Both the position numbers and the translations under genes were made by a program. Below, one piece after another: positions 19,968 to 58,869 of a DNA stretch of 64,000 bases (the stretch's first letter is position 1; each line of letters opens with the position of its first letter). The notes under the pieces are model-generated. The model saw nothing but the letters and a program-made list of their open reading frames with translations. It was not told where the DNA came from and did not search any database. Location of the stretch: assembly GCA_951406725.2 (NCBI GenBank), contig OX597821.1, forward strand, positions 3,844,001 to 3,908,000. Direction: 5' to 3'. The stretch is from Octopus vulgaris (lineage: Eukaryota).

Positions 19968-20578
19968 CCTCTTCTTAATCATTTTTGCCCCTTGTGGATC
20001 ATAGGGCCTCAACGGTTCTTTTCCCCTTTTTGCGGTCATTGGCGAGTTTCTTGGCTGCTTCCCATGTCAGGCCGGTGGTCCTGAGCTCGTCCAAAATGCT
20101 CCGTTTCCATGTCTGCTTTGGGCGTCCTCAATTCCTTTTCCCCTGCGGGTTCTAGTCAAGTGCTTGTCGTATCACATTTGAGGGTTATTTCCGCAGTGTG
20201 TGTCCGATCCAACTCCATTTCCATCGTCTAATCTGACTATGTATAGGCTCCTGGTTGGCCCTCTCCCACAGGTCGGTGTTTGGCACTCTGTCGAATCACT
20301 TCAGATAGAGGATCTGCCGGAGACATTTGTTGTTGAAGGTCTGGATCTTCTTGTAGTTGCTGCAGGTGGCTCTCCATGTTTCAGAACCATACAAAAGCAC
20401 AGATTTTATGTTTGAACTAAATAAGCGAAGTTTAGTTCGAGTTGAGATGGCAGTGGACTTCCATGCGGGCCGAAGAATAGCGAAGGATTGCCAAGCCTTC
20501 TTGCTTCTTGCCGTGATGTCCTCGTCTGATCCACCTAATTTGCTGGTGTTGCTGCCAAAATAAACAAATTCCTCCTGT
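19968..20578 (-). mobile_element. RTE-clade LINE, 5'-truncated 3' end, dead
   Basis: EEFVYFGS...GGSDEDITARSKKAWQSF...TKLRLFSSNIKSVLLYGSETW is the typical post-RT C-terminus of RTE elements. Stops and frameshifts follow downstream. Confidence 0.9.
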
Positions 20579-20580
20579 GT

Positions 20581-20752
20581 GTGGCCTTGACGTGGCGGGG
20601 AGGCTTGCGTACTCTTATGATCCCTAGAGGATGTGCCAGTGGTGCACGTGTTCCCTGGTACGTTTAACCTTGTTGGTTTGGTCGAAGAGGAGGAGTCACA
20701 CTGAAGTATACATTTCGGCCCTCCAGATTCGGGAGTTGTGCTATACGCTAAC
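20581..20752 (+). mobile_element. RTE-type 5'UTR segment, inverted relative to the adjacent RTE 3' end
   Basis: gccttgacgtggcggggaggcttgcgt...atgatcc and ggccctccagattcgggagttgtgc...gctaac resemble conserved RTE 5'UTR blocks (recalled, not aligned). Confidence 0.6.
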
Positions 20753-20798
20753 ATCGTATACACAAAAACAAACACCCGTTACAGACACCAACACACAC

Positions 20799-20872
20799 AG
20801 GGTGCGGTGACTATTTTGTTGTCTGACTGACGCGAAAAGGAAAATGACACTGACATCTCATTTTAACAGCTA
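20799..20872. mobile_element. Isolated terminus of the same maT-like family as 13648
   Basis: acagggtgcggt...acactgacatctcattttaacag is shared with 13647-13720. Confidence 0.75.
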
Positions 20873-20874
20873 TA

Positions 20875-21370
20875 TGAGGTCTGATCAATAATTATCCGGT
20901 CTGTCACCATAGTAAAGAAATTTAAAGCATACATATTGAAGCTCCTTGACACAAATTGACCTTAAACTCTGCTGTGCATGCACCCAACGTTTCCGCGTTC
21001 TAGCTCACTTCCGCTGTTTACAGCAGTACTTGGAAGAATCGTATATAGCGTGATCATCGCATTCACCAAGACACAGAAAGTTGTCATGGCAATATATTCT
21101 CTGAGGGCTAAACAAAGTTTCATAAATCGTATGGAGCGGAGTGTATGAGCAGCGTACAAGTGTACGAGTGTTCCGGATGTTAACATGATGGCCGAAAAAT
21201 GTTCAAGTTGATGAACGTACTGGGAGACACACAAACCACAGAACTGACGTAAACATCACAGGTATGCGTGCAGCTGTGAGGGGAAAACGTGAAATCACTA
21301 TCCCTAAGTTATCAGAATATGTGCAGATTAGTTCCGGTTCAGTTCAGTCCATTATCACTGAAGATTCTAG
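20875..21370 (+). mobile_element. Mariner 5' fragment (TIR plus degraded HTH region)
   Basis: TIR-like tgaggtctgatcaataattatccgg. Remnants YGAECMSSVQVYE and RAAVRGKREITIPKLSEYVQISSGSVQSIITED match mariner HTH motifs. Confidence 0.75.
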
Positions 21371-21371
21371 C

Positions 21372-22382
21372 GATGAAATCAGAATTGATGCCAAAAGACA
21401 TAGAAACTTTGACAAAAGTTCAACACAACAACACACCTTCTCCGAAAATACTACCTTACATATCCACATACAACCCCAGAAACAAAGAAGCCTTCACCAT
21501 CATCACCCAGAATTTACCAATACTTCATAAGGACCCCAAATTAAAGGAAATTCTAAACATACATAAAAACATTAAAAGCTACAAACAACCTAAATCACTT
21601 AAAAAGATTCTCACAAGGGCAAAATTGCTTTCTAAAATTACGGATGCAAAAGTAAAAAAATGTGGTAGATCAAACTGTGCAACATGTCCAAACCTTCTAG
21701 AAGGATCAGAATTCCCCTTCAAAGAGGAACAAAAATTCAAGATCAAATCTAATTTTACTTGTGCCTCTGAAAACATAATTTATGTCATAAGATGCTCGGG
21801 ATGCCACCAAAGCTACGTGGGGTTCACGGGACTATCACTCAGACGCAGATGCACACTGCATCGACAACAGAATGATACCCTTTAGTGAGCATATTGAGAA
21901 ATGCGCAAAACAACTACTATCACAATTTTTAATCTTTCCATCTTACCAATGTGCTATTGGAACACCAACACAAATTAGACTAAACAAGGAAACATTCTTC
22001 ATTGAAAAATATAAGCCCAAACTTAGCCACTCTAACATTCTTATACAGAGAAACTCACCCCATTAAAAACAAAACAAGAAATATAACGCGATTATCTCCC
22101 TTACACCGGAAGAAATCACCTATTACCTCTCCTTACCTGGAACTCTTCTTTACACTTCTTAACGAAATCATAACGATGTTTTGATAAATTTGAAAAGTTA
22201 AACAAGAAACCGGTAATTTCTTCAAAAACTGTCACTGTATGAAAAAAAAGTTATAACATTCTTCTGACATAATGACTCAAATATATATTTTTTAACCTTT
22301 TAAAACAAGCCTCCTGTAGTTTTTTCACTTTTTACTATCTTCTATATATTCAACCACGTGTTTTGACACACCAACTTTCTCA

Positions 22383-22384
<2 letters not shown>
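21372..22384 (+). mobile_element. Penelope-like element 3' part: Cys-rich linker, GIY-YIG endonuclease and pLTR tail; frameshifted
   Basis: ORF 21289-21885 has STYNP...KKCGRSNCATC...FTCASENIIYVIRCSGCHQSYVGFTG..LRRR...H. It continues in ORF 21872-22066 (SEHIEKC...RLNKETFFIEKYKPKL). The element ends in (TA)n. Confidence 0.9.
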
Positions 22385-22422
<38 letters not shown>

Positions 22423-22501
22423 TATATATATATGTATATATACATATATATATATACATGCATGTGCGTGTATGTGTTTGCGTATGTGTGTGCACTCGAG
22501 T

Positions 22502-22556
<55 letters not shown>

Positions 22557-22586
22557 CATACATACATACATACATACATACATACA

Positions 22587-22619
<33 letters not shown>

Positions 22620-23580
22620 TTACACAAACACAGGCACATTTATATGCGTGTGTGTCTATGTATTTATATGCAACAAATTTCTCATGGAAGTTAGCCAAGT
22701 TCATTAATTCATTATATTTATGTTGTAGACATCTTGCTTCACATATTATTGATGTTTCGGGTACTAGTATGCTTGGCATTCTATTTCAAGTGAAATTCTA
22801 TTTCAGAAATGATGCAGGGTGTCTTAAATTACATTTCGTAATTCGAGGACGTGACATCATCCCAAAGCATTTGGAAACTATTATTTGAAATTCCAAAATA
22901 TTCATTTTCAATACCATCACTTTTCTTGTTTTGCCTCGATACACAAGTTCTTTTGCGAGTCGTTGGCCGTCATTTGCCGTCTAAGTAAATTGCTATATAC
23001 TGCTTATTCTTCTTCCATTTTGTTCATATATTAGTTTGGACTCATAACGTGATGTAAAATTAATCGTTTTATGTTTTTCCATTATGTTAAGTACATCAGG
23101 TTAACAACTCAATAAACGTTGCCAGGAGAAATAACATGAAAAATAAATAGATTTGTTGAAGCGATTATCTATAAATAGGTATTCATAAATGGCCGTTTTT
23201 GTGGAGACGTGGCTGCAAATATTAGGTATATCTCATCGTTAAAAATGATGGCGATTTCGGTCACAATGAGAAAAATACTGTGGAAATATATTAAATCTTA
23301 AACGCATACTGGCCAGTACATTTTAAACGAAATTTGATGGAAGGTGTGTGAAAACGTTTTGAACGACATGTTTATATTTGTGTGTGGATTTATTGCCATA
23401 TTTATCAGTTTGATATTGAAAACACTGAAATGTGACCCTTCAGACAAAAGACCTTCATTGCCAAACATCCAGGCAATATATACGGTTTAGATAAAGCTTC
23501 GAATCATAACATCAACATGCCTGAGGCTTCTTCAGTATGGTAAAAAATGTTCAAGGCCCCAACCAGAGTAGGGCATTCAC

Positions 23581-23698
23581 CTGCGCTGGAGTATCTTATT
23601 GTAACAATATTGCACATCTTATATAATATTATTAATGAGCATATAAGGTATCCAGCTATCGGGATCCTCAGCAGACCAGGCAAAATGCATAGCGGCAT
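23581..23698 (-). CDS. Candidate first coding exon of a host gene, encoding a signal-peptide/signal-anchor-like N-terminus (exon 23581-23827 including 5'UTR)
   Basis: Minus strand: acceptor gtgtctttgtctctaccag| opens the exon at 23827. ATG at 23698 gives MPLCILPGLLRIPIAGYLICSLIILYKMCNIVTIRYSSA + G, then donor gcag|gtgaat at 23581 (phase 1). Non-repetitive sequence with a hydrophobic core. No homology recognised. Confidence 0.5.
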
Positions 23699-23964
23699 CT
23701 ATAAAATCTGTATTCAAATTCTGCCGTTGTCCATTTTTTGTATCTTCTGCGGATAGGTGGGGATAAAACAGACGCACTGGGCCGATGTATATAAGTATAT
23801 TATGTGCGCTTGTAATACGCGTGACATCTGGTAGAGACAAAGACACAATTTACTTCCGCCTTGTGAGAAAAAAAGAGAGTTGAAAATAATACAGTAGTAT
23901 TTATTAGGCGGTAAATTTCTTTGTTCCTGAACATCTAATACTAAACAAGACATAGATGCGATGT

Positions 23965-24113
23965 CTGCTCGCAAGAAGGTTCGTTTCCAGCCGCTTGGTT
24001 CCGGGTTCAGTCCCACTTCATGACAATTTGGGCAACTGTTTACTACCATTGGCTCGGTCTGGCAAGATTCGGAAGTGGATTCCTTAGATGGAAACTGAAA
24101 GAAGCTCATTGTG
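23965..24113 (+). mobile_element. SINE family B 5' fragment
   Basis: ggttccgggttcagtcccact...tgggcaa...ggaaactgaaagaagc followed by (TA)n. Confidence 0.75.
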
Positions 24114-24121
24114 TATGTACT

Positions 24122-24277
<156 letters not shown>

Positions 24278-24587
24278 TGTGTGTGTGTGTGTGTATCATA
24301 ATACATGTATATCCACAAACCAAATTTTTAGCATGGAGCTGTATAAGTATGTTGATAACCTTTAACCCGTACGCCTGACTACTGTAATTTTTCTGTGGAT
24401 TTTTTTCATTGTTATTTGTGGTTTAACTGAGGGTTTTAACGCATCTTTCTAGCATGTAGGTGCCTTATGCGCCCTTATCATGAACATAACTTTTAGTTGT
24501 ATAGCTATGTAGTGCTATTTAAGGCATGTAACCAAATATATTACTGTTGTTATTAAAAACTATTTATATTTACCGCAGATGATAATC

Positions 24588-24698
24588 TTTTCGAAAGAAT
24601 GAAAGGCAAAGTTGACCCCCGTGGAATTTGAAATCAGAACGTAGCGGCAGGGGAAATACCGCTAAGCTTTTCACCCGGTGCGCTAACGATTACGACAG
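24588..24698 (-). mobile_element. SINE family A, 5' half
   Basis: gaaagaatgaaaggcaaagttgacc...ggaatttgaaatcagaacgtagcggcag...cggtgcgctaacgatt is the reverse complement of the family A head. Confidence 0.8.
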
Positions 24699-25189
24699 GA
24701 ATAGTGGGGGAAATTCATAGCCATGTATTGAGAGGAATCCGTTGCAACTGTGAGTAATCGACCTCTGGAAGCTCGATGTTTCCCCCGACCTGGTAGTCGA
24801 GAGAAATTTGGCTGTCTAATAGCGCAAATCAGTCAATGTCGTTGACTGTTTTAGTAACATATATAACTTTAAATCTGTCCAGAGTTACCTCTTCGCTATT
24901 TTCCATTGATTTCGGCTCAGAAGATAGACACGCAGCTTCTGGGAATCGGAAAGAAGACAGCAGAGGAGAGATCGGTATTCTTTACGCCTTTTATCATACG
25001 ACACAATATTTTTCCCCACTGCATTAGCAATGAAATTGCGTTTAAAATTTGAAATATGATATAAATATATTTTAACTAAACAAAAGTTACCTTATGCCGA
25101 AAGACTGCTTGGCGATGATACCGACGAGTATATGTATATGTGTGTGTGTGTGTGCGCGCGCGTGTGTCATTTTGTATATTTGTGTGTCT

Positions 25190-25400
25190 ACCATTTACTC
25201 TGTCTTTGTCAGCCACAAACGATGGGCAACCTGTTCTTATGTATTTACGTCCCCGTTAGCTAAAAGCTCGACAAAAATGAGTGATAGACTAAGTGTCAGG
25301 CAGAAGAGAAAACAACAAATACAGGGGTCGCTACGTTCGACTAAGAATTCTTGAAGACTGTTTCGGTCTAATGACTGAAACAAGCAGCAGATTAAAGATA
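25190..25400 (+). mobile_element. SINE family B 3' fragment
   Basis: tttacgtccccgt...ggggtcg...cgactaa...aatgactgaaacaag. Confidence 0.6.
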
Positions 25401-25416
25401 AGATACATACCTACGC

Positions 25417-25457
<41 letters not shown>

Positions 25458-25585
25458 CAGCAAAAATTTAGATTCAAATGAATATGGTACTTAATTTAGA
25501 TGCACCAGAATTCTTTATGGTGTTATCCATAAAAATCCGTGGGGTGATTATAATCAAAATAAGCAACAAGAATGACTCCGTTAAT

Positions 25586-25671
25586 TTGGTACGATCATTT
25601 CGTACTACATCATTTTATTAAATGTTGTAAGTATTACATCAGTTTTAAAATGCTGAGCACTCATCAGCCAA
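25586..25671 (-). ncRNA. Type-I hammerhead motif with long loop II and palindromic stem III
   Basis: Reverse complement: ttgg-CTGATGA-gtgc...gtac-GAAA-tgatcg-TA-ccaa. The inverted arm at about 26011 shows gtacGAAAcgatcgTAccaa. Confidence 0.7.
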
Positions 25672-26061
25672 TTATAGAGGTTTTCCATTAATACAAAAGA
25701 ATTCATATCAAGTGGCAACATTATAGAGAAGGTAGATACATAGACAAAGATGTGGATTTAAATTTTAAGAGAATTTGAGGTAGTGGAGCCCACCAACTGA
25801 CTGACTAAGATTCAGTTGTTACAGATTACTGTAAGGTTCTGAGAGGGAAGAACAAATGAAAGGAGACAATAAAGATTTTCTAATTATAGAAATGGGGTAA
25901 AGGGGATGTCATAGCTCTATATAAGGAAGTATGTGCAAGACAACATTGTCACAACTAAATGCCAATTACTACTATTTGATGAACAGATTCGGCGTTAATA
26001 AAATGATGTAGTACGAAACGATCGTACCAAATTAGCGGAGTCATTCTTGTTGCTTATTTTG

Positions 26062-26136
<75 letters not shown>

Positions 26137-27561
26137 CTTTAACCTATATATACGGATCAAGGAAGTGTTAGTTGTTGGGTGGTTGTTAAAGTAACACAAC
26201 AAAATCAAATATCTAAGAATGGACAATGCAAAAATATGAAAACAAATTGAAGGGTATAGAAATACAATTATAGAAAGGGAATAGAGAAATATTGTGCTAA
26301 GACATAAATCGTAAGTATAAACTGTCTCGAATATTATTCTGCCATTAAGTAACAGATAATGTTTTTTAGAGATCACACGTGAACGTAAACAAAGAAATGA
26401 AAAAGAAAAAAAAAACAATTACAGGAAATTATTTTCGATATCTGTTTCATAACGTGTCGGAAATAGTCGATTCCTGAGAGAGAGAGAGAGAGAACGAGAG
26501 AGGGAGAGAGAGAGCAAGTGAAAAGGAGTGAGAGAGGGTGAGGGAGAAAGAGGAGTGCTAATTATAGTCATGTATATGAATAGTTAATAGCCAGTGGCAC
26601 AATACACCAAGACAATTTGCTACTGACCGTGTTCGAAAAATGAATAACGCACTCAGGTTACGTATAATGTAAATCGTAGACAATTGGATATCGTGTACTG
26701 AACTGCACTGAATAAACTTAACGCTAATAATACGATTATAGTATTGATAAAACTGCTTGTATCTGCGAACGCTTATGTTTGTGTTTTGGTTTATATACAT
26801 ATATACATACTCATATAAAAACATACAAGCAATGCTTGTGTGAGTATTTGTTGCCCTATGTAAGTATATATATGTATGTGAAGGTTTCTTTTGGTGTATT
26901 TGTTTTAGAGCTTTATGTCACGAAATGCTTAATAATCCGGGTTGTCACAGATGTTAAATCCTAATAAATGACTCCTAAATTGTGATTCCTTGATGCGAAT
27001 AGGTGTAGGCCTGTGTCGACTAATTATCAACGTACAAAAAATAGCTACTTTAACAAGTTAAAATTAAATCTTTGCTTTGCTAAGATTAGCAAGAAATTAC
27101 TGGAGGTAAACAGGCATTGTGCAGGTTTGTTTGAAGCTCGTTCTGTAATAATAGAATTGACATGAAGATAAATCTTAATAGCAAGAACAAAGAAAATAAT
27201 TAAATATATTGCTCGACAATTCGATACACGACTATAGAATATGGGATGCTTATTTTGATTGAAGAATATCCGTTATTCGATTGCGGTAGTGACGAATATG
27301 TAAGGAAATAGAACTGGAGAGGAGCAACTGTATTCATGATGATCAGTGACAAGGCACTGTCTATGTATTTGGTTCTTAATCTCTCTCACCGGTAACACTA
27401 AATGCATACAAACAGATAGACATGGAATGCGTAACATACGGTACAAGCACACTAAAGGGCACGCGAATCGAGTCATACACATACATATACATACATACAC
27501 ATACATACATATATATCTGTGTGTGTATGTGCGTGTGTGTGCGTCTGTGTGCATATTTATT

Positions 27562-27598
<37 letters not shown>

Positions 27599-27664
27599 GT
27601 ATGCATATATATATATGTGTGTGTGTGTATTTATACATACACACACACACACACACACATATAC

Positions 27665-27702
<38 letters not shown>

Positions 27703-27724
27703 GTATATATATACATACATATAC

Positions 27725-27756
<32 letters not shown>

Positions 27757-27802
27757 ATTTATACATACACATATATATATATACATATACTTATACATAT
27801 AC

Positions 27803-27859
<57 letters not shown>

Positions 27860-28099
27860 TATATTTGCGCAGATAATGTGTGCCCTACTGGAGGCAGTTC
27901 TACGACCACCCACTCTGAAATCCCAAGCCTATAGAGGCTTATACAACATACTCAAATAGCCACCTTCATAAATGTGATATCTGACGCTGACCAAACATTC
28001 GCCCACACAAAGTACCTTCGCTAGTGTGTGCTATAGAAATAAAATCTGAGATAAATTTTGTTTGTTTGTTTTTGCTTTAAGTGACTTAATTCGTCTGAA

Positions 28100-29050
28100 T
28101 TATCTATATGCGTAGTAGCTCTTTCTCCAGAGTAACATTCTCGCGTCTTCTTCCATGCAAGCAATTAATAGCTTTTAAATGCAAAGCATGTAAAATCATC
28201 GGAGGATTCTTGTGAATGAGATGTGTCGCCCAAACGATATACACAGGAGACCAAAGTCTGTTTACGGAAATTGACGCAATTGTACAGATGGAAATTAAAA
28301 GAAAGGAAAACTGCCATCGTTCAAAAGTCAAGCACACACATTACCAGCGTGTGTACGCATTGCTTCGCACAGACCTATGAGTCTGTGGGCGTGCTGCACA
28401 GATGAACTCTGTTCAAAATTCTTGACAGGAGATACTGGAAGAATTTCGGCATGGAGATGTTGTTGCAAAGACGATAAACCGGCGGCTGACAATGAGTTTG
28501 ATGTAGAGAACGATAATAGTCTGCTGTTGTTTCCTGGAACATCTTGTAGCGGATGAAGGGTGACAGAATGAAAGAGAATGGATTTTGTGATTCGGAAACG
28601 AAGGTTTTGTCCGCTGAATAGTGTTGATTCTCTCTTGCAGGAACTAAGAGGTTCGAAACTGAGTGATAATTGCAGGATGACATGGAGATTACTTGCAGTG
28701 ACAAGCCCTACATTCACGATGAGTTCTTGGCATGTGTTTGTACTATGAACAGCAATTGGTGTTTTAAAGCATACGTTACAGCAATATATTAAAAGGAAAG
28801 GACAGGAGTAGAAGCTGAAAACACTCAAATGCGTGACCATACAAAACATGGCGGCAAATACGAGAATCTGAAATTTGCACAGGTGATTTGAACCCAATCC
28901 ACTTCACAGACAAGACTTGCCGCCTTTCGACTTTCTCTTGATCGGACTAATGAAGAATTATTAATCATAAGAAAACAAGGGAAACAAGGAAAACAAGGAT
29001 TTGATGACAGAGACGAGTTGTGAGTGACTGTGAGAAAGTGGCTACAGATG
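28100..29050 (+). pseudogene. Heavily decayed mariner transposase
   Basis: 28896-28958 translates NPLHRQDLPPFDFLLIGLMKN (compare HPPYSPDLAPSDFHLFGPLK), followed by FDDRDEL*VTVRKWLQ. Upstream is NHRRILVNEM. Confidence 0.65.
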
Positions 29051-29257
29051 TGTATAATGGTAATTCTTTATATTATTTACTGAGAACAATCATAATTGTA
29101 AATTTATTCATAATTGTCTACTTTTCTCTTATGAAAAACTTGTTTGATTGCATGTTTTGACCACTGGTATATGCATAAATAATTCTTCCTAATGTACTTT
29201 TACATTCCCCATTTTATTATTATTATTATGATTATTGTTATTATTATTATTATTATT

Positions 29258-29300
<43 letters not shown>

Positions 29301-29302
<2 letters not shown>

Positions 29303-29462
29303 GTGGTCTTCTTTCAGTTTCCGTCTATCAAATCCACTCGCAAGGCTTTGGTCAGCCCGACGCTATAGTAGCAGACACTAGCAGACACTTACACAAGGTT
29401 CCACTCAGTGGGACTGACCCAGAAACCTTGTAGTTTGGAAGCAATCTTTTTACCACAAAACC
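29301..29462 (-). mobile_element. SINE family B 5' fragment
   Basis: tctttcagtttccgtctatcaaatccactcgcaaggctttggtc...cagtgggactga. Confidence 0.8.
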
Positions 29463-29838
29463 GCGGACAAATTTCGTTTGGAGAAATGGTGTACACCGCC
29501 CTCTCTGGATTGAGCAAACATTGTACCTCTGTCTGCTGACTCATACTCCAACAGTCGGCTTTGATATGGCTTTGTTTTCAAAGCGGACATAACTCAAAAT
29601 GTCTTTTCTTTTTCCTTCTTCGTTTTTTATCTTTGCATCCACCATTTCATTTTGTTTCCCGTGATTTACCTTGTTCTAGCGCCCTGAATTGCAAATTGTA
29701 CAAGCCATTTGCTCAAAGCCTAATCATTGCTAAGAGAACCAAGGCGTGTTATTAAAATTTACCTGGACTACATCTCCACCTCATGAACCTATTAGTGTCT
29801 TGTAAGTTTATAGTCTGCACAGTAAATGAATTTATATA

Positions 29839-29913
<75 letters not shown>

Positions 29914-30079
29914 CACACATATATATATATATATATAAAAAAAATATATACACACACATATATACAAACATACATAGATATATACATATACATATATGTA
30001 TGTTTCTATGTATGTATATGCATTTAGTGATACCTACAAATGCACACACATAAAGATACATACACACATACATGCATAC

Positions 30080-30111
<32 letters not shown>

Positions 30112-30127
30112 TTATATATGCGTGTGT

Positions 30128-30172
<45 letters not shown>

Positions 30173-30230
30173 ATTATATATATATACATACATAAATATG
30201 CATACGTTTCAATACACATAAAAGAAGTAT

Positions 30231-30276
<46 letters not shown>

Positions 30277-31055
30277 GTGTGTCTGCGCGTAGGTGTGTTA
30301 GTGGTGTGGTCTCTCAGCCTAACGTTTCAACAGAGCATAAATATAATGAAAATTCAAAAAGGAAATGAATTGAATAATTTACACGATGTATGCGACTACC
30401 ATATGATATAATTAGCGATCATTCAATAATTTTGAATCTTGAAGATTATTGAACTGATGAAAATCTATCTCGTATCTGTCTCAGAATTAATAAATAAATA
30501 AATAAATAAATAAATGAACAAATTTAATAAATAAATAAAACCAAAAGCAGAAGAAAGTGTAACTTTAATTATTATTTAGATTCAAACGTTCGATCATTCG
30601 GGTCAACGGAATTGTATTATAGACATGTATCGTGATATGAAGCGACATATAATTGTCATATTGTCTCTTCATGTCTTGGCGTTTTGAGACGTAGAAGTTT
30701 TACGACTTTTATAAGTGATTGCTAATGCTTAATTCTAATTGGTTTCACGCTAAGTTGAAGATGGAGGTTGGTTGAACGCTGGTCTGTTTTAATATTCCAA
30801 TATTTTAATGTGTTTTTAACAGTTGCAAAAAAATGTAATTTTCTAAATTGAATTTGCAATTCAAGTTGCCTATTTGCAATAACATTTATCAAAGAAAATA
30901 TCAAAAATTTTGTTTTTTTCTTTTTACTTCCTTATGCATATATAAATAAATACATACACACACATGCATACCGACATTCTAAGCTATGCACGCTTATGTA
31001 TATGCATGCGTACATACATACATATATATATGTACATATGTACGCATATATGTGA

Positions 31056-31580
<525 letters not shown>

Positions 31581-31886
31581 TATGTACGCATATATGTGAA
31601 TATATATGTGTGTATTTTATATAGGAGATTTTTGTGAATGTATATATGTGCATATATTTAATAAATATCTTATCTCAGCATTTAATCATACAGGCAATCA
31701 TACACAGTAATATATACATCCGATCACGCAGCCCACGCATGCATATATGTAATATACATGTACTAATATATATATATATATATATATAACGGGAAGCTTT
31801 ATGGAAATAAACAAAAGACGAAGGCAGGTGGAAAACAAACGAACAATTGTATTAGTATGGCGCTCAGGAAATATAAATAAAACAAG

Positions 31887-31924
31887 TCTTTAACGTTTCG
31901 AGCCTACGCTCTTCAACAGAAAGA
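31887..31924 (-). ncRNA. Variant minimal hammerhead motif in a 210-bp element (31789-31999) between (TA)n tracts
   Basis: Reverse complement: tcttt-CTGTTGA-a-gagc gtag gctc-GAAA-cg-TT-aaaga. Stems I and II are perfect; the core is non-canonical. Confidence 0.6.
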
Positions 31925-32025
31925 TACACAGAGAGAGAAAAACACAGAAAGAAGGAGAGAAAAAAAATGCGTGCAGTAGCTAACGAATCAACATGGCGAT
32001 ATATATATATATATATATATATATA

Positions 32026-32167
32026 GGCGCAGGACTGGCTGTGTGGTGAGAAGCTTGGTTCCCAACAACTCGGCTCGGGTTCCGTGCGTGGCACCTTCGG
32101 AATGTGTCCTCTGCTATGGCGTCGGGTCACCTAAAGTGAGTGGATTTGGTAGGCAGAAACTGAAAAA

Positions 32168-32217
<50 letters not shown>

Positions 32218-32452
32218 TGTGTGTGAGTGTGTGTATGCATGTATGTATTTGTGTGTCTTTGTTTGTCCCCCCCATTATAGCCTGAGAACCGATGTTGGTG
32301 TGCTTATATCCCGTAACATGGCCGTTCGTTCTGCAAAAGATATCGATAGAATATGTACAAGGCTTACAAAGAATAAGACCTGTTTTCGATTTATTCGGCT
32401 AAAGGGCTCTGTCTCAGCATAGCCGTAGTCAAATGACTGAAACAAGTAAAAG
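32026..32452 (+). mobile_element. SINE family B copy
   Basis: ggcgcaggactggctgtgtggtgag...tgactgaaacaagtaaaag, between (TA)n tracts. Confidence 0.85.
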
Positions 32453-32455
32453 ATT

Positions 32456-32513
<58 letters not shown>

Positions 32514-34124
32514 GTAGAAACACACATATAAATGTAAGAGCAATGTTATCGAAAATTAGAAACAATGGCACATATCTCTATTCATACCTTCTGAATGGTA
32601 TTTTCGAATGTAACTACACGCTTAACAGGATTCCTCTGGCTTCAGTTTAGAAGTAGATTTGGGGAAATTTCTCATACGAAACGCTAAGTCATAGTGATAA
32701 GAAAAACATTCTGAAAACGAGACGGGCGACATTGCATATATGAACAAGGACAGAAAAATCGTAATCCAGTGTATACGAAATTACGACAATAGGTATCGTA
32801 TGACACAATTTTTTTATCTAGTGGCGTAACGAAAACAATGTAGGAAGTAAGTTGATTTTCTTGCTGAAAGAAATTCAAACATAAATACCGGTTAAAATGC
32901 CAAAGAATATTTGGGAGAAATTTGCATGCATTTCTGAAATAAGATGACAGCTACGAAAGAGCCAAGACAAAAACAAAAAATAACAACAAACCCAAAAGAG
33001 AAACGAAAGACGATGGAATAGCACAGTTTTCTAACTAAGAGACGTGAGAACATGACAGCTTCAGATAACTTAATGTATAGCCTATTTCATGCCTGACTCG
33101 AAAAGCCGTAGGAAATCGCGAATCGGAAACATATTAAGAGATAGAAACGAATGACATACAAAGAAAAGGTAGAAGACTAAATGAGAGAAAGCACATGTAT
33201 TCATATCTATCTATCTCACTCACTCTCTCTGTCTGTATGTCTGTCTTTCTCTCTCTCTATCTCTCTCTCTATATATATATATATACCAACATATCTCTCT
33301 TTCTCTCTTTTATATATATATATATATACTCTTCCTATGTACTCTCCTGTTCGACTTTTGGACTTTACTCATAGGACATTGGAATATTGCATATATATCA
33401 TGATGCCTAAAAAATGGATTCACAACTTCAATACCCCTACTTGTCTTGCATCTATTTTCCTTCCTCCACCTTACTCTCCATTTTGTATCGCATCTAAACT
33501 AACTATGACAACTATCCTCTCAAACCGTCTCCAGACAAGGGTTATAATTAATAAATATCCTAGAAACAGCTGTAAGACTTATCAAGCTCTAATATAAGAC
33601 TTATCAAGCTCTAATATCTACACAGACTTGGTTTTATTATCTTACGGAATAAAAATTCCGGCATAACAGAGGTTCATATTATTGTCAATGAAGAAATATA
33701 TTTTAATTTAGTAGGCCCCTACATCTCACCATATAAAAATAATTTTTATTTATCCTTTAAACACCTTCCGATGGACTTCAGTATACATAATCTTACGAAC
33801 TGTACTTTGATCAATCAGTATGCGGCTTAGATGTCTCGCAGATTGGTGAGCGCACCAACTAAGCTCCAACTGTATTCCCACCAATCAAGACGTGGGTTAG
33901 ATCCAAATGATTCGTGAACGCGCCAAATTGGTTAGCAGTTACCCTCCTTTTTCCATTGAAATCTATTGCTACTATTCTTACAGTTTGCCAGAAATTTTAC
34001 GGCGGTGCATCAGCATGACCCCAACTATGAGCTGAGATTACGGAAAAAATTCAATTGGGTCAATGTTGTTATGGTTACTACTACTACCATCATCGCCATC
34101 ACGTTCATTAATATTGTCTTCAGT

Positions 34125-38731: not shown

Positions 38732-38908
38732 ACAGTTCTATATTTAAGAGATGAACGATTATGAACATTATTTACATTATTTACATTATTTAAATTTGTC
38801 CTCATCTTTTTGATGTTAACACAACGTTTCGGCTGATATATCCTCCAGCATTCATGAGGTGCCTTGGGAGATTTTCGAACCTGGGTTCTTATTCTTAAGG
38901 TTTTTTGA

Positions 38909-38910
<2 letters not shown>
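38732..38910 (-). mobile_element. Hammerhead-bearing repeat module, core mutated (motif at 38818-38863)
   Basis: Reverse complement: ggcac-CTcATGA-atgctg...cagcc-GAAA-cg-TT-gtgtt. Same family as 58640. Confidence 0.7.
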
Positions 38911-38989
<79 letters not shown>

Positions 38990-39000
38990 CATCATCATCA

Positions 39001-39061
<61 letters not shown>

Positions 39062-39317
39062 GTAGTGAACGATATTTCGGCATCTTTTGTGTCTTCAACT
39101 GGTTCAAAAAATAATTTTGCCAATCCACTTCATTCTGGTTAATATATAAAGGATTGAGGAAAATTCCTCCTGATGTCGAAATATAGTTCGCTAGATAACA
39201 ATGGCATTCTGCTTTTAATTTTGACTCTATATCTTCAGGAGGAGTTACCTCAATCCTTTCGATATTATTATTGTTATTATTATTACTATTATTATTATTA
39301 TTATTATTATTATTGTT

Positions 39318-39398
<81 letters not shown>

Positions 39399-39955
39399 GA
39401 GTGAGAGAGCAGTTCATGCCATCAAAGTGACACTGGGGTAAAATATACGAAGCCCAATATACCCATCATGACTACCCGTCTGATAAGGGTACACCAGGCA
39501 CATGCATCACAACCATACGTGCGCGACATGGTAATCTCATATCAAGATAAGCAGCACATGACCTTGCAGGTGGGGCCCAGTTAGAATTTTCTTCAGGTTG
39601 AGTAGCCCATCCCGCTCAAAAGGTCCCTGAATAAGGGTTGTTTAAGGATGTTGAACGAACCACCCATGTTTCCAGAGGTGAATTATTCAAACCCCAAAGA
39701 ATCCCTCTCAACACCCGGCTATGATGCTCCCCCACTACTTCTGCTCGTGATCAGAGATGCACATATCGTCAGCCACTAAGGGACATGCTCAACTGGCTAA
39801 GGTGAAACAACTGACAAGCAAATCTGTGGTATTGAGCAGAATATTTGCTGTAGCCCATCTTTTATACTAAGACAAAACAATGTACATGATAACACTTCCA
39901 ATCAGTTAAGATCAGAAGCTATGAGAGCCACTGCCTGGTACTGCATCAGGGCATT
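39399..39955 (-). mobile_element. About 555-bp non-coding repeat inserted in (AAT)n
   Basis: Sharp boundaries inside (ATT)n on both sides, raised GC, no ORF. A diverged fragment lies at about 24701-24775 in the opposite orientation. Confidence 0.7.
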
Positions 39956-40090
39956 TATTATTATTATTACTTTTTTTTCTTCTTTCAAATTTTCTTCCAT
40001 TTCTTGCCGAGTGTCTAGGGCAAAGAAACTCATAGTATACATTGGTAAGCCATTAAACCAAACTCAGTAGTTCGTTTATTTTTTTTTTAA

Positions 40091-40157
<67 letters not shown>

Positions 40158-40197
40158 GATTATAATTATTGTCGCTGTTGTTGTTGTTGTTGTTATT

Positions 40198-40274
40198 CAG
40201 GTTGTTATGGAATTGAACTCGGAATCTTGGGATTAGTAGCCCCCGCTCTTAACCACTACGGCATATGCCCGTGG
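40198..40274 (-). mobile_element. Short tRNA-like SINE head running into an (AAC)n/(AAT)n tract
   Basis: Reverse complement: gggcatatgccgtagtggttaagagcgggggctactaatcccaagattccgagttcaattcc, with A and B boxes. Confidence 0.75.
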
Positions 40275-56639: not shown

Positions 56640-58639
56640 CAGAGCATGTATGTATGGATGTTTCTGAGTATTATTATTTCGCTTAGAGGATTGCGCAACA
56701 AGTGGAAAAGGAATCTGGTAGATAAGAGGACATTATTCGATTTTTTCTAGGAAATCTACTAAGAGATTTCAAACTTACCTTTCTATGCTTGGATAACAGC
56801 AAACGAATCCACATTATATGCTCATACACTGGCCTCCTTACAGTAGTAGATTTCAATTAAAAGTGTGAGAGGAATGTCCGATCAAACAAATTCTACAATA
56901 AAGACACTTGCAGGAATTTATTTGTGTACTACATATCAGGCTTCCGTATCCGTTCCACGGCCGGTTATATAGACAATGAACATTGCTGTATCGAGACAAA
57001 ATTTTGAATTCTCAAATCATAAAATTATACAAGGTAATTGAAGGTAACTACGACTTGGCATCTATAAATGGTCGCGTAAGCCCAATAAACTGCGGATTTA
57101 TTGTAATATCTGAAGTTACCTGAATTCAGTGACCTTAGAGTAGTTTTTAAACTCAGAACTTAGAGAACCAAAACCAATCCCGGTAACGAAGTTTTTTCAA
57201 CGCTACCATTAATTTGCCAAGGAAACCTTTTTTGTTTCAAAGAAAGGACCCACATTTAACAACCTAGTAGAGTGGAATTTGTGTCAATGCAGGCTATAAA
57301 ATCATCGTTTAGGTACCTCACCAAACGCAACCGTATTTCTGCTCCTTTCAACATTAAGAAACATTTCTTTTCTCACAATTTAGAGAATAATTTATGAATC
57401 GTTTTACAAAAATATGAATACGATATATCTTCCAGTGTATCACGCTATCACGCAATCTCGCGGTATGTTATAAAATACCTGCCCAGCCTCCTCGTTCATA
57501 TCACATCATACACTCTTACATAAAGGATAAACGTGTATGAAAATCAAAGAGATAAGATCATTACAGTACGTCTTTGATCATAGTTTCCTTGCTCAATGAC
57601 GATCAGGGTTAAACACCACTACCGCCATCTCCACAACGAAGAACAACAATAACTACAACAAATGTACAATTTATAGAAAGTGAGCTTTTCTGTATTATAT
57701 TATGCATTTCTCTTTCTAGACAAACATATGAATTGAATAAATACGCTATTCAATCTATTCAATTTTAAATTTGAATAGAATTGTTGCAGAGTTCTTTCAG
57801 ATAGCTGTGATGGATATACAAAATATTGCATTTTGATGAAATATTTACATCTTAATCAATCATTTGTCAAAATAGAATAAAGTTATGTAGTGAATGTGAG
57901 TAAAAGCTAAAAAAAAATTAAGATAACTGCATTATTATTAATAATTGAGAGAAAATAAATTTCCTGATTTAAAATGTATTGCTTGTCAAAAATGATAACA
58001 AATGCAAAACTTTAGCGAATTTTACACTATAACTCGGCATTCGGGTAATTAGGTTGCTTAGACGACAACTGCAACAGCAACAACAGCAGCAATAACAACA
58101 GCAACAACAACAAAATTAACAATAACTTGAGGAATAGCATTAACAGCCAATTCGATGATTGAATTCAAATCAGACTAAAGGGTTGTGGACTGGTATAATG
58201 CATTTATTTATTTTTATTCGACGTTATGTCTGAATGGTAAACAAATGCGTGAGGTGTTCACGATATTAAAATCTACAGTTGTATATGTCACAGACGACAT
58301 ATACAGAATGACACAAAGGTACAGAGCCTTACTCTATGAACTGGAAAACAGTAGACTCAAACAAAATGATACTCTGAGTATAAGTCCATCAAATATTCAA
58401 TCAGCATAGGCCAAAAAAACATATAATTCCTGATACAGATTATTTCTTGTATGCATTAAATCTAAATCGCTGTATAAAATCAAATATGTGTGTGTGAGTG
58501 TAGGAGTGTCGGTGAGTGTGTGTGTATGTGTGTGTGAACGCTTAAGTAGTGACAAACCAAAATGCAACGATCAAAGAAGGGTAGATCGAAGATAAATATA
58601 TTAAAGGATTGAAAGAAACAAGAAGAAAAAATAGTTATA

Positions 58640-58869
58640 TTTTCAAAAGATGAGGAATTATGTACATTATTTACATTATTTACATTTGACGGATATTTGT
58701 CCTCATCTTTGTTGTTATCACAATGTTTCGGCTGATACACCCTCCAGCCTTCATCAGCTCTCTTGGGGAAATTTCGAACCTAGTTTTTCATTCCTATATC
58801 ATCCGAAACGTTATGTTGATGACAAACAAGATGAGGACAAATATCCGTCAAATGTAAATAATGTAAATA
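58640..58869 (-). mobile_element. Second copy of the hammerhead module, with an inverted partial duplication
   Basis: CTGATGA-aggctg...cagcc-GAAA at 58717-58762 on the minus strand. 58797-58869 is an inverted copy of 58668-58737. Confidence 0.75.

Follow-up and report, generated by a model that had tools for sequence, protein, structure and literature searches.

Within a window of 64,000 nucleotides of Octopus vulgaris DNA (the whole stretch that was analysed in this study), a tRNA-like head, an (AAT)n spacer and a module with a hammerhead motif follow one another on the minus strand, and together they almost certainly form the terminal repeat (pseudo-LTR) of a Penelope-like element (PLE). 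The original prediction had placed the head, the (AAC/AAT)n tracts, three inserts and the module on this strand, and a check of the sequence found all of them in position, as follows.

40198..40274, minus strand: head derived from tRNA-Arg(ACG), the first part of the pseudo-LTR; in long copies it lies 29 nt past the PLE stop codon
40253..40263, minus strand: A-box-like motif TGCCGTAGTGG, by sequence, with one change from the family majority in the window copy
40209..40218, minus strand: B-box-like motif GTTCAATTCC, by sequence
40091..40197, minus strand: 5' part of the (AAC/AAT)n spacer, by sequence
39969..40090, minus strand: insert 1, 3'-terminal piece of a non-LTR retrotransposon of the restriction-like endonuclease (RLE) type, 85% identical to L024:1341-1457
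39399..39956, minus strand: insert 2, a non-coding repeat of ~555 nt with matches in ~20 other loci (74-98%)
39263..39398, minus strand: middle part of the (AAT)n spacer, by sequence
39061..39262, minus strand: insert 3, a fragment of another dispersed repeat, as a back-to-back pair, by genome search and flanks
38911..39060, minus strand: 3' part of the (AAT)n spacer, by sequence
38732..38910, minus strand: module, the start of the PLE open reading frame (ORF) with hammerhead and tail, 87% identical to the family majority
38818..38863, minus strand: minimal type I hammerhead, core at 38858-38852, predicted cut after 38823
38732..38765, minus strand: PLE tail of ~30-40 nt between two preferred 3' ends; the window copy has the long end
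58624..58869, back-to-back (58796-58624 minus, 58795-58869 plus): second copy of the module, without head, by sequence

The head of the window copy starts 4 nt ahead of the first G of the tRNA (40270) in plain flanking sequence, and the two boxes within 40274-40198 were assigned by the box consensus. Relative to the PLE reading frame, the start codon of the module is altered and the frame is shifted. The hammerhead announced for this module is present in the family, whereas the core of the window copy itself is mutated: it reads CTCATGA, with G5 and the first base of stem II altered, and this ribozyme is predicted to be inactive. Rfam at gathering score found no tRNA or hammerhead in the window and, at E<=1 on 12 element loci, returned microsatellite noise only; ARAGORN found 0 tRNAs in the window and 0 in 43 element loci, and a repeat search within the window returned microsatellites alone. 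Upstream of the element, at ~41270-41050 (minus), there is a different SINE-like repeat, presumably similar to the octopus Meta-domain SINEs. Hammerhead-like cores of unrelated sequence were also seen at window position 31919 (minus) and, in locus L022, just beyond the module.

When the genome (2.8 Gb, 227 contigs) was searched separately with the head and with the module, the two co-occurred in the same orientation far above chance, and an independent dispersal of head and module was not borne out. The likeness searches gave 3,533 first-look candidates for the module and 1,036 for the head, and 40 of each were scored. With 3 kb fetched per locus and the window locus left out, a co-oriented partner was present in 28 of 29 head-picked loci and in 21 of 29 module-picked loci, the misses among the latter being 5'-truncated or having long inserts inside the spacer; the chance expectation is ~0.002 per locus within 300 nt. 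Two further samples were drawn by exact match, so as not to depend on similarity to the window copy; since a perfect 21-mer was required, they are biased to younger copies: sample 1 comprised the first 100 of 4,924 matches to a module 21-mer (first 60 Mb of contig C1), and sample 2 comprised 49 loci from among the first 100 hits of a head 21-mer, out of 2,555 in all (62-114 Mb of C1). The module lies downstream of the head in 75 of 77 head segments of sample 1 (79 before two duplicates from the overlapping loci L114/L115 were removed) and is present in 37/49 of sample 2, the other 12 entering inserted repeats or ending within the 1.2 kb fetched. Therefore, with their association fixed in order and orientation, head and module are one unit, as the original prediction had proposed. 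The gap between them in uninterrupted copies is mostly 13-130 nt. Genome-wide, exact 21-mers numbered 953 for the linker, 2,555 for the head and 4,924 for the module (reversed controls, 0), and correction for exact-match rates brings these counts to ~2,500, ~13,000 and 20,000-33,000, respectively.

The parent of this unit was recognised from one locus (L011), in which a decayed endonuclease frame stands just ahead of the head. A search with this endonuclease stretch gave 30 loci and, besides L011, the frame runs into the head in 29 of 29, two of which have a partial head only. The head begins 29 nt past the stop codon of the PLE, and the module is the first 165 nt of the PLE's own reading frame, in which the hammerhead is located. 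A majority sequence of long copies (median depth 33) contains a single frame that opens within the module and extends for 844 codons without interruption; counted from its first ATG, at module base 20, the product is 838 aa long. The ORF includes a reverse transcriptase (RT; Pfam RVT_1, E=1.4e-10), and its C-terminal part is nearest to GIY-YIG-bearing atlas clusters (0.96-0.97); the endonuclease (EN) part was not recognised by Pfam alone. The module directly precedes the 5' part of the ORF in L215, L221, L225, L227 and most of L275-L304, and the pseudo-LTR comes from a partial tandem in which the module, with the head present or absent, stands directly ahead of the ORF start. One period of the element is ~2.66 kb and runs from module through ORF, 29 nt, head and (AAT)n to the next module. 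This layout resembles that of Drosophila virilis Penelope, where the 3' UTR of one copy is the 5' end of the next, according to the sections available (PMC2377424). Module length varies mainly by 0 (44 copies), -9 (25) or +9 (8) nt, steps that keep the frame; -10, +1, -12 and -1 are the next most common.

Movement by a PLE, which had also been suggested from the window sequence, is borne out by the hallmarks of such elements. The 3' ends of 100 copies are bimodal, with 47 at module positions 139-158, 47 at 176-183 and 6 earlier. An optional tail of 30-40 nt is known for PLEs (PMC8557442, in part), and in Poseidon_Ac the tail marks two internal RT start sites (PMC11167929, in part). Back-to-back junctions with an inverted 5'-truncated copy occur at 58 of 91 loci (two of which overlap) and at 30 of 49. 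No poly(A) was found in 38 long-end flanks, and no target duplication in 8 solo copies, where the mean shared word was 4.25 versus 4.41 in mismatched pairs. An extra Cys cluster between RT and EN, where Neptune/Nematis elements have a zinc-finger linker and the control Neptune-type family has such a cluster, was not seen by eye. By the features tested, the element is an EN+ PLE, apparently of the Penelope/Poseidon type. A separate, Neptune-type PLE (L364-L393) was also encountered in this genome; it is young, its copies being 93-95% identical at the protein level and retaining open frames of more than 800 aa; there are 23,247 first-look candidates, and no tRNA head was present in the four 3' ends inspected.

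In the family, the hammerhead consists of CUGAUGA, one extra A, a stem II of 5-6 bp, GAAA, a palindromic ACGU and a 5-bp stem I, and 58 of 100 copies retain an intact core together with the beginning of stem II, truncated copies being counted as misses. The extra base after A9, the G-C pair that opens stem II and the ACGU palindrome in place of stem III are also listed for the minimal type I hammerheads of animal PLEs by Cervera and De la Pena (2014). In the available part of that report (PMC4209133), the extra base between 9 and 10.1, the G10.1-C11.1 pair, the palindromic 15.2-16.2 and the short stem I are shared with the octopus motif, with no notable difference. By analogy, a single minimal hammerhead is predicted to be active only as a dimer. 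Among the first-sample and likeness-picked loci, tandem non-coding hammerhead units occur only in L007 (also L200; G000:C30:17291632-17292700), where six modules of ~188 nt, all of them with a hammerhead, stand in tandem behind one head; the other loci are single or back-to-back. This array is retrozyme-like and could cut as dimers. In L114/L115 and L121, both members of the back-to-back pair are long-ended and have a common downstream flank; these are inverted duplications including host DNA.

The head is, by alignment, derived from tRNA-Arg(ACG). It was compared with 11 isotype/anticodon classes, for which Arg genes were fetched on purpose via a degenerate pattern and 30 further loci were added from a tRNA family search, and tRNA-Arg(ACG) was the best of the 11. 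The family head is identical to tRNA-Arg(ACG) of its own genome at 52 of 74 positions, with a score of 70 versus a maximum of 41 in 2,000 shuffles; tRNA-Thr, Asn and Ser, also considered as parents, were rejected in favour of Arg(ACG). In the family-majority head, the A box is identical to that of tRNA-Arg at 9 of 11 positions and the B box at 9 of 10; the boxes were retained and the cloverleaf was lost, the T-stem being mismatched. As separate observations, a true tRNA-Arg(ACG) gene lies ~800 nt from one element copy (L061:589-661; G000:C4:23211435), which is probably chance, and a tandem cluster at G000:C2:211887720-211907118 holds ~20 tRNA-Arg(ACG)-like matches.

The 5' ends of the copies pile up at the start of the head. 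In sample 1, 43 of the 56 head segments at risk (those reaching +10) end within -9 to +10 of the first base of the tRNA, and the hazard of a 5' end is 0.038 per nt at the head start, 0.008 just inside the head and 0.0006-0.002 in the ORF. In sample 2, 31 of 49 ends are at -9 to +4 (14 of them exactly at +1), 8 at -10 to -16 and 10 further up; most ends at -13/-16 are fold-back overshoot on a palindrome and belong to the same class as the head-start ends. These 5' ends are what a Pol III transcript would give. Further upstream, a weaker cluster of ends at ~390-405 nt from the head was noted in 4 segments (L128, L145, L170, L179), together with two 5' ends near -705 to -720; these are possible further stop or fold-back sites.

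On this evidence, and with the two boxes retained, an RNA 5' end made at the head by Pol III is probable. The reading that comes next, which we consider rather unlikely, is a PLE read by Pol II whose 3' UTR simply includes an old fragment of a tRNA or SINE, the pile-up being due to fold-back, an RT stop or an RNase P cut at +1. Many junctions are indeed near-perfect fold-backs centred on the palindrome at -6 to +6, with 35 of 48 ends near the head start adjoining an inverted piece, and fold-back alone could be the source of the pile-up; however, the +1 peak is seen without inversion too, in 6 of 13 copies with plain flanks. Of 30 copies that extend beyond the tail into the ORF, 7 get as far as the head in forward direction: 1 stops at the head start, 2 inside the head, and 4 continue 61-689 nt into the upstream ORF. 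Since 4 of these 7 tandem-derived copies read through the head, which fits a Pol II transcript, some templates appear to have begun upstream of it, as longer tandems, circles or Pol II RNA. On the other hand, head-start stops are rarer in tandem-derived copies (3/9, a hand count including inverted partners) than in tail-ended copies (43/56; Fisher P=0.015), a difference that an intrinsic RT stop would not predict. A Pol II-type internal promoter and an intron are reported for D. virilis Penelope (PMC2377424, in part), and the octopus module has a GT...AG stretch of 38-56 nt, a candidate intron that would join a downstream ATG in frame; no spliced joint in the module was seen in RNA runs X21-X23 (source species uncertain), at the low depth of 5-17 beyond the module. 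In these runs, both read directions are equal, and 82-86% of aligned reads continue into unlike sequence with no common start or end. Nor does a Pol II-read element account for boxes that are kept though the cloverleaf is lost, or for TTTT missing along the whole unit.

There is no TTTT in the 2,640-nt sense strand (P=0.006 by base shuffle, P=0.025 by synonymous-codon shuffle), as compared with 10 in 2,457 nt of the control Neptune-type PLE of the same genome and T content; across copies, the density is 0.54 per kb here versus 4.8 per kb in 30 control PLE copies. The comparison rests on one control PLE family, and the strength of the test is moderate. GGGG is likewise absent from the same strand (base-shuffle P=0.04), TTTT is equally missing from the 1,281 nt of an unrelated RLE ORF piece in L024 (P=0.07), and the Phe content of the PLE protein is half that of the control PLE protein. 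That the coding RNA is made by Pol III as well is possible though doubtful, and an uncapped Pol III RNA is a poor message, which counts against it. It may tentatively be suggested that a coding PLE acquired a promoter from a tRNA and rid its 2.6-kb coding strand of Pol III terminators, so that Pol III makes both message and genome, and internal priming on this RNA yields tens of thousands of SINE look-alikes, but we hold this full scenario to be improbable as it stands.

The class of element given in the original prediction, a separate SINE that borrowed a PLE tail, was not supported, with the head lying within the autonomous element in 29/29 and the module being its ORF start. As expected of a tRNA-derived SINE, a tRNA head with A and B boxes is present; a separate non-autonomous family, a target duplication and an A-rich or simple-repeat tail were not found. 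A self-propagating tRNA-headed hammerhead SINE, with solo copies read by Pol III and a PLE acting in trans, is accordingly quite unlikely. It would explain why short copies outnumber ORF-linked ones about five to one, begin at the tRNA start and form a short unit without TTTT, and head +64 A and module 58 A are commoner in short copies (40/95 vs 6/39, P=0.0014). However, the short (96) and ORF-linked (43) copies agree in their majority base throughout the 75 head and 180 module positions tested, and each main haplotype at three variable sites occurs in both (short/ORF-linked: GTA 52/22, ATA 15/4, AAG 11/1, AAA 5/1). A SINE-only subfamily was sought among these copies and not found. In addition, solo copies would be without the RNA beyond the priming sites that the enzyme needs, by analogy with Poseidon_Ac, whose enzyme requires the first 172 nt of the ORF, past the priming sites (PMC11167929, in part). 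Short copies are therefore best read as arising from RNA of the autonomous element instead of forming a separate lineage. That a tRNA SINE unrelated to the PLE came by chance to share a microsatellite with a PLE end can be dismissed, for although both kinds of element favour AT-rich sites and 12 of 49 heads have no module within 1.2 kb, those exceptions mostly retain the AAT tract and then enter inserts, order, orientation and joints are fixed in 75/77 and 28/29, and the ORF continues into the head in 29/29.

For the preferred reading, a PLE with a Pol III start in the upstream repeat followed by internal priming that yields SINE-like copies, the following course may be proposed, and on balance we lean towards it. 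In a partial tandem, Pol III would initiate in the upstream repeat's head, near -6 to +1 of the tRNA, and without TTTT it could continue through the ORF; in D. virilis Penelope, too, the promoter is described as sitting in the pseudo-LTR (PMC2377424, in part). The RT-endonuclease would then nick AT-rich DNA and prime inside the RNA at two ORF-start sites 30-40 nt apart. Internal RT starts and dispensable cleavage were demonstrated in vitro for anole Poseidon_Ac, in the portion of the report at hand (PMC11167929). Priming at the first repeat would lead to run-off at the RNA 5' end after ~280 nt and thus to SINE-like copies, which would often fold back on the short palindrome at -6 to +6 to give back-to-back pairs, while priming at the second repeat would give 5'-truncated copies bearing the ORF. 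If the hammerhead cuts only as a dimer, most templates would remain uncut. Elements that seek AAT would insert later in the spacer, as three did in the window copy.

The three inserts had been predicted to be nested in the spacer, and they are later, independent repeats inside the AAT tract. The match of insert 1 (L024:1341-1457) follows the end of a 427-aa RT-linked ORF, putatively of the R4/Dong-like clade; Dong-R4 elements target (TAA)n. Dong-R4 is among the LINEs listed as recently active in O. vulgaris in the available text (PMC13282606). The repeat of insert 2 sits in (AAT)n tracts with variable 5' truncation, and that of insert 3 (693 first-look candidates, 40 scored) occurs beside such tracts; both inserts carry TTTT runs. 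The spacer of many other copies is interrupted by similar inserts, and it appears that the (AAT)n spacer acts as a landing pad. Further observations concern the inserted repeats themselves. The 3' ends of at least two RLE non-LTR families were seen in the spacer of L010, L013, L014, L024, L025, L036, L067 and others. The insert 2 repeat (L020, L177, L200) has no tRNA head, is 91-98% identical between many copies and has an (AAT)n end, and short tandem repeats of its first bases occur in L020 and L137. The insert 3 repeat (G000:C1:33626160-33629307) forms back-to-back pairs and a 151-nt tandem array, and looks as if it may be mobilised by a PLE.

Compared with known systems, as far as the parts of the reports that were available describe them, the octopus PLE appears to work like Poseidon_Ac of Anolis carolinensis (PMC11167929). 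It differs from both Poseidon_Ac and Penelope in that its 3' UTR consists almost entirely of the head derived from tRNA-Arg and of (AAT)n, that the 5' ends pile up at the tRNA start, and that TTTT is absent. Penelope has a TATA-less Pol II-type promoter with an intron, and no tRNA piece is described in the sections consulted (PMC2377424). The Schistosoma repeats Sm-alpha and Sj-alpha (PMC6765202, PMC2770079) are similar in being short and of high copy number, with a hammerhead behind a tRNA-type promoter, and now and then in having tandem modules, as in the six of L007; however, Sm-alpha is described as a non-coding SINE-like repeat, whereas the octopus layout is the end repeat of a coding element with the hammerhead in frame. 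Non-LTR retrozymes (10.64898/2026.07.22.740005), described as non-autonomous PLE derivatives, and non-autonomous Chlamys such as MRC1 (PMC8557442) are likewise short, PLE-related units of hammerhead or pLTR-like type, but they are tandem or evolve separately and no tRNA head is described for them in the available text, whereas no separate lineage was found for the octopus short copies. Helenus, Ajax and Cassandra also hold a piece of a small-RNA gene within a terminal repeat, although these are non-autonomous LTR elements and the octopus element is an autonomous PLE (PMC10886601, in part).

The short form may already have been published as a SINE. Three tRNA-derived retroposons of octopus were reportedly described by Ohshima and Okada in 1994, some of which are said to come from tRNA-Arg, and the short form may be among them. 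OR1, one of the three, is a CORE-SINE according to the accessible part of its description (PMC4824008), unlike the short form of the octopus PLE. A tRNA head in a PLE pseudo-LTR was not found in the literature searched; repeat libraries (PMC13282606) and tables (PMC4209133) may hold the family. The octopus element is thus read as a PLE whose terminal repeat includes a head of tRNA origin, which is probably a Pol III start, possibly for the whole coding RNA.

It is generally assumed that retrotransposons with coding capacity are transcribed by Pol II or as part of a host transcript, and PLE transcription has been dissected for D. virilis Penelope only, within the literature examined (both PMC2377424, in part). 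If Pol III is not used, the octopus element would be an ordinary PLE with a strong truncation hot spot. If it is used, this PLE, terminator-free and driven from a tRNA-type promoter, would be an exception to the Pol II rule and would raise the matter of cap-independent translation; it would also show how an autonomous element can lead directly to a repeat of SINE shape, and Sm-alpha might be explained by the same model. Repeats that are annotated as tRNA-SINEs can be mere by-products of the RNA of an autonomous element. This matters for repeat libraries in genomes where SINEs reportedly account for about 12% and are mostly unclassified, in the available text (PMC13282606).
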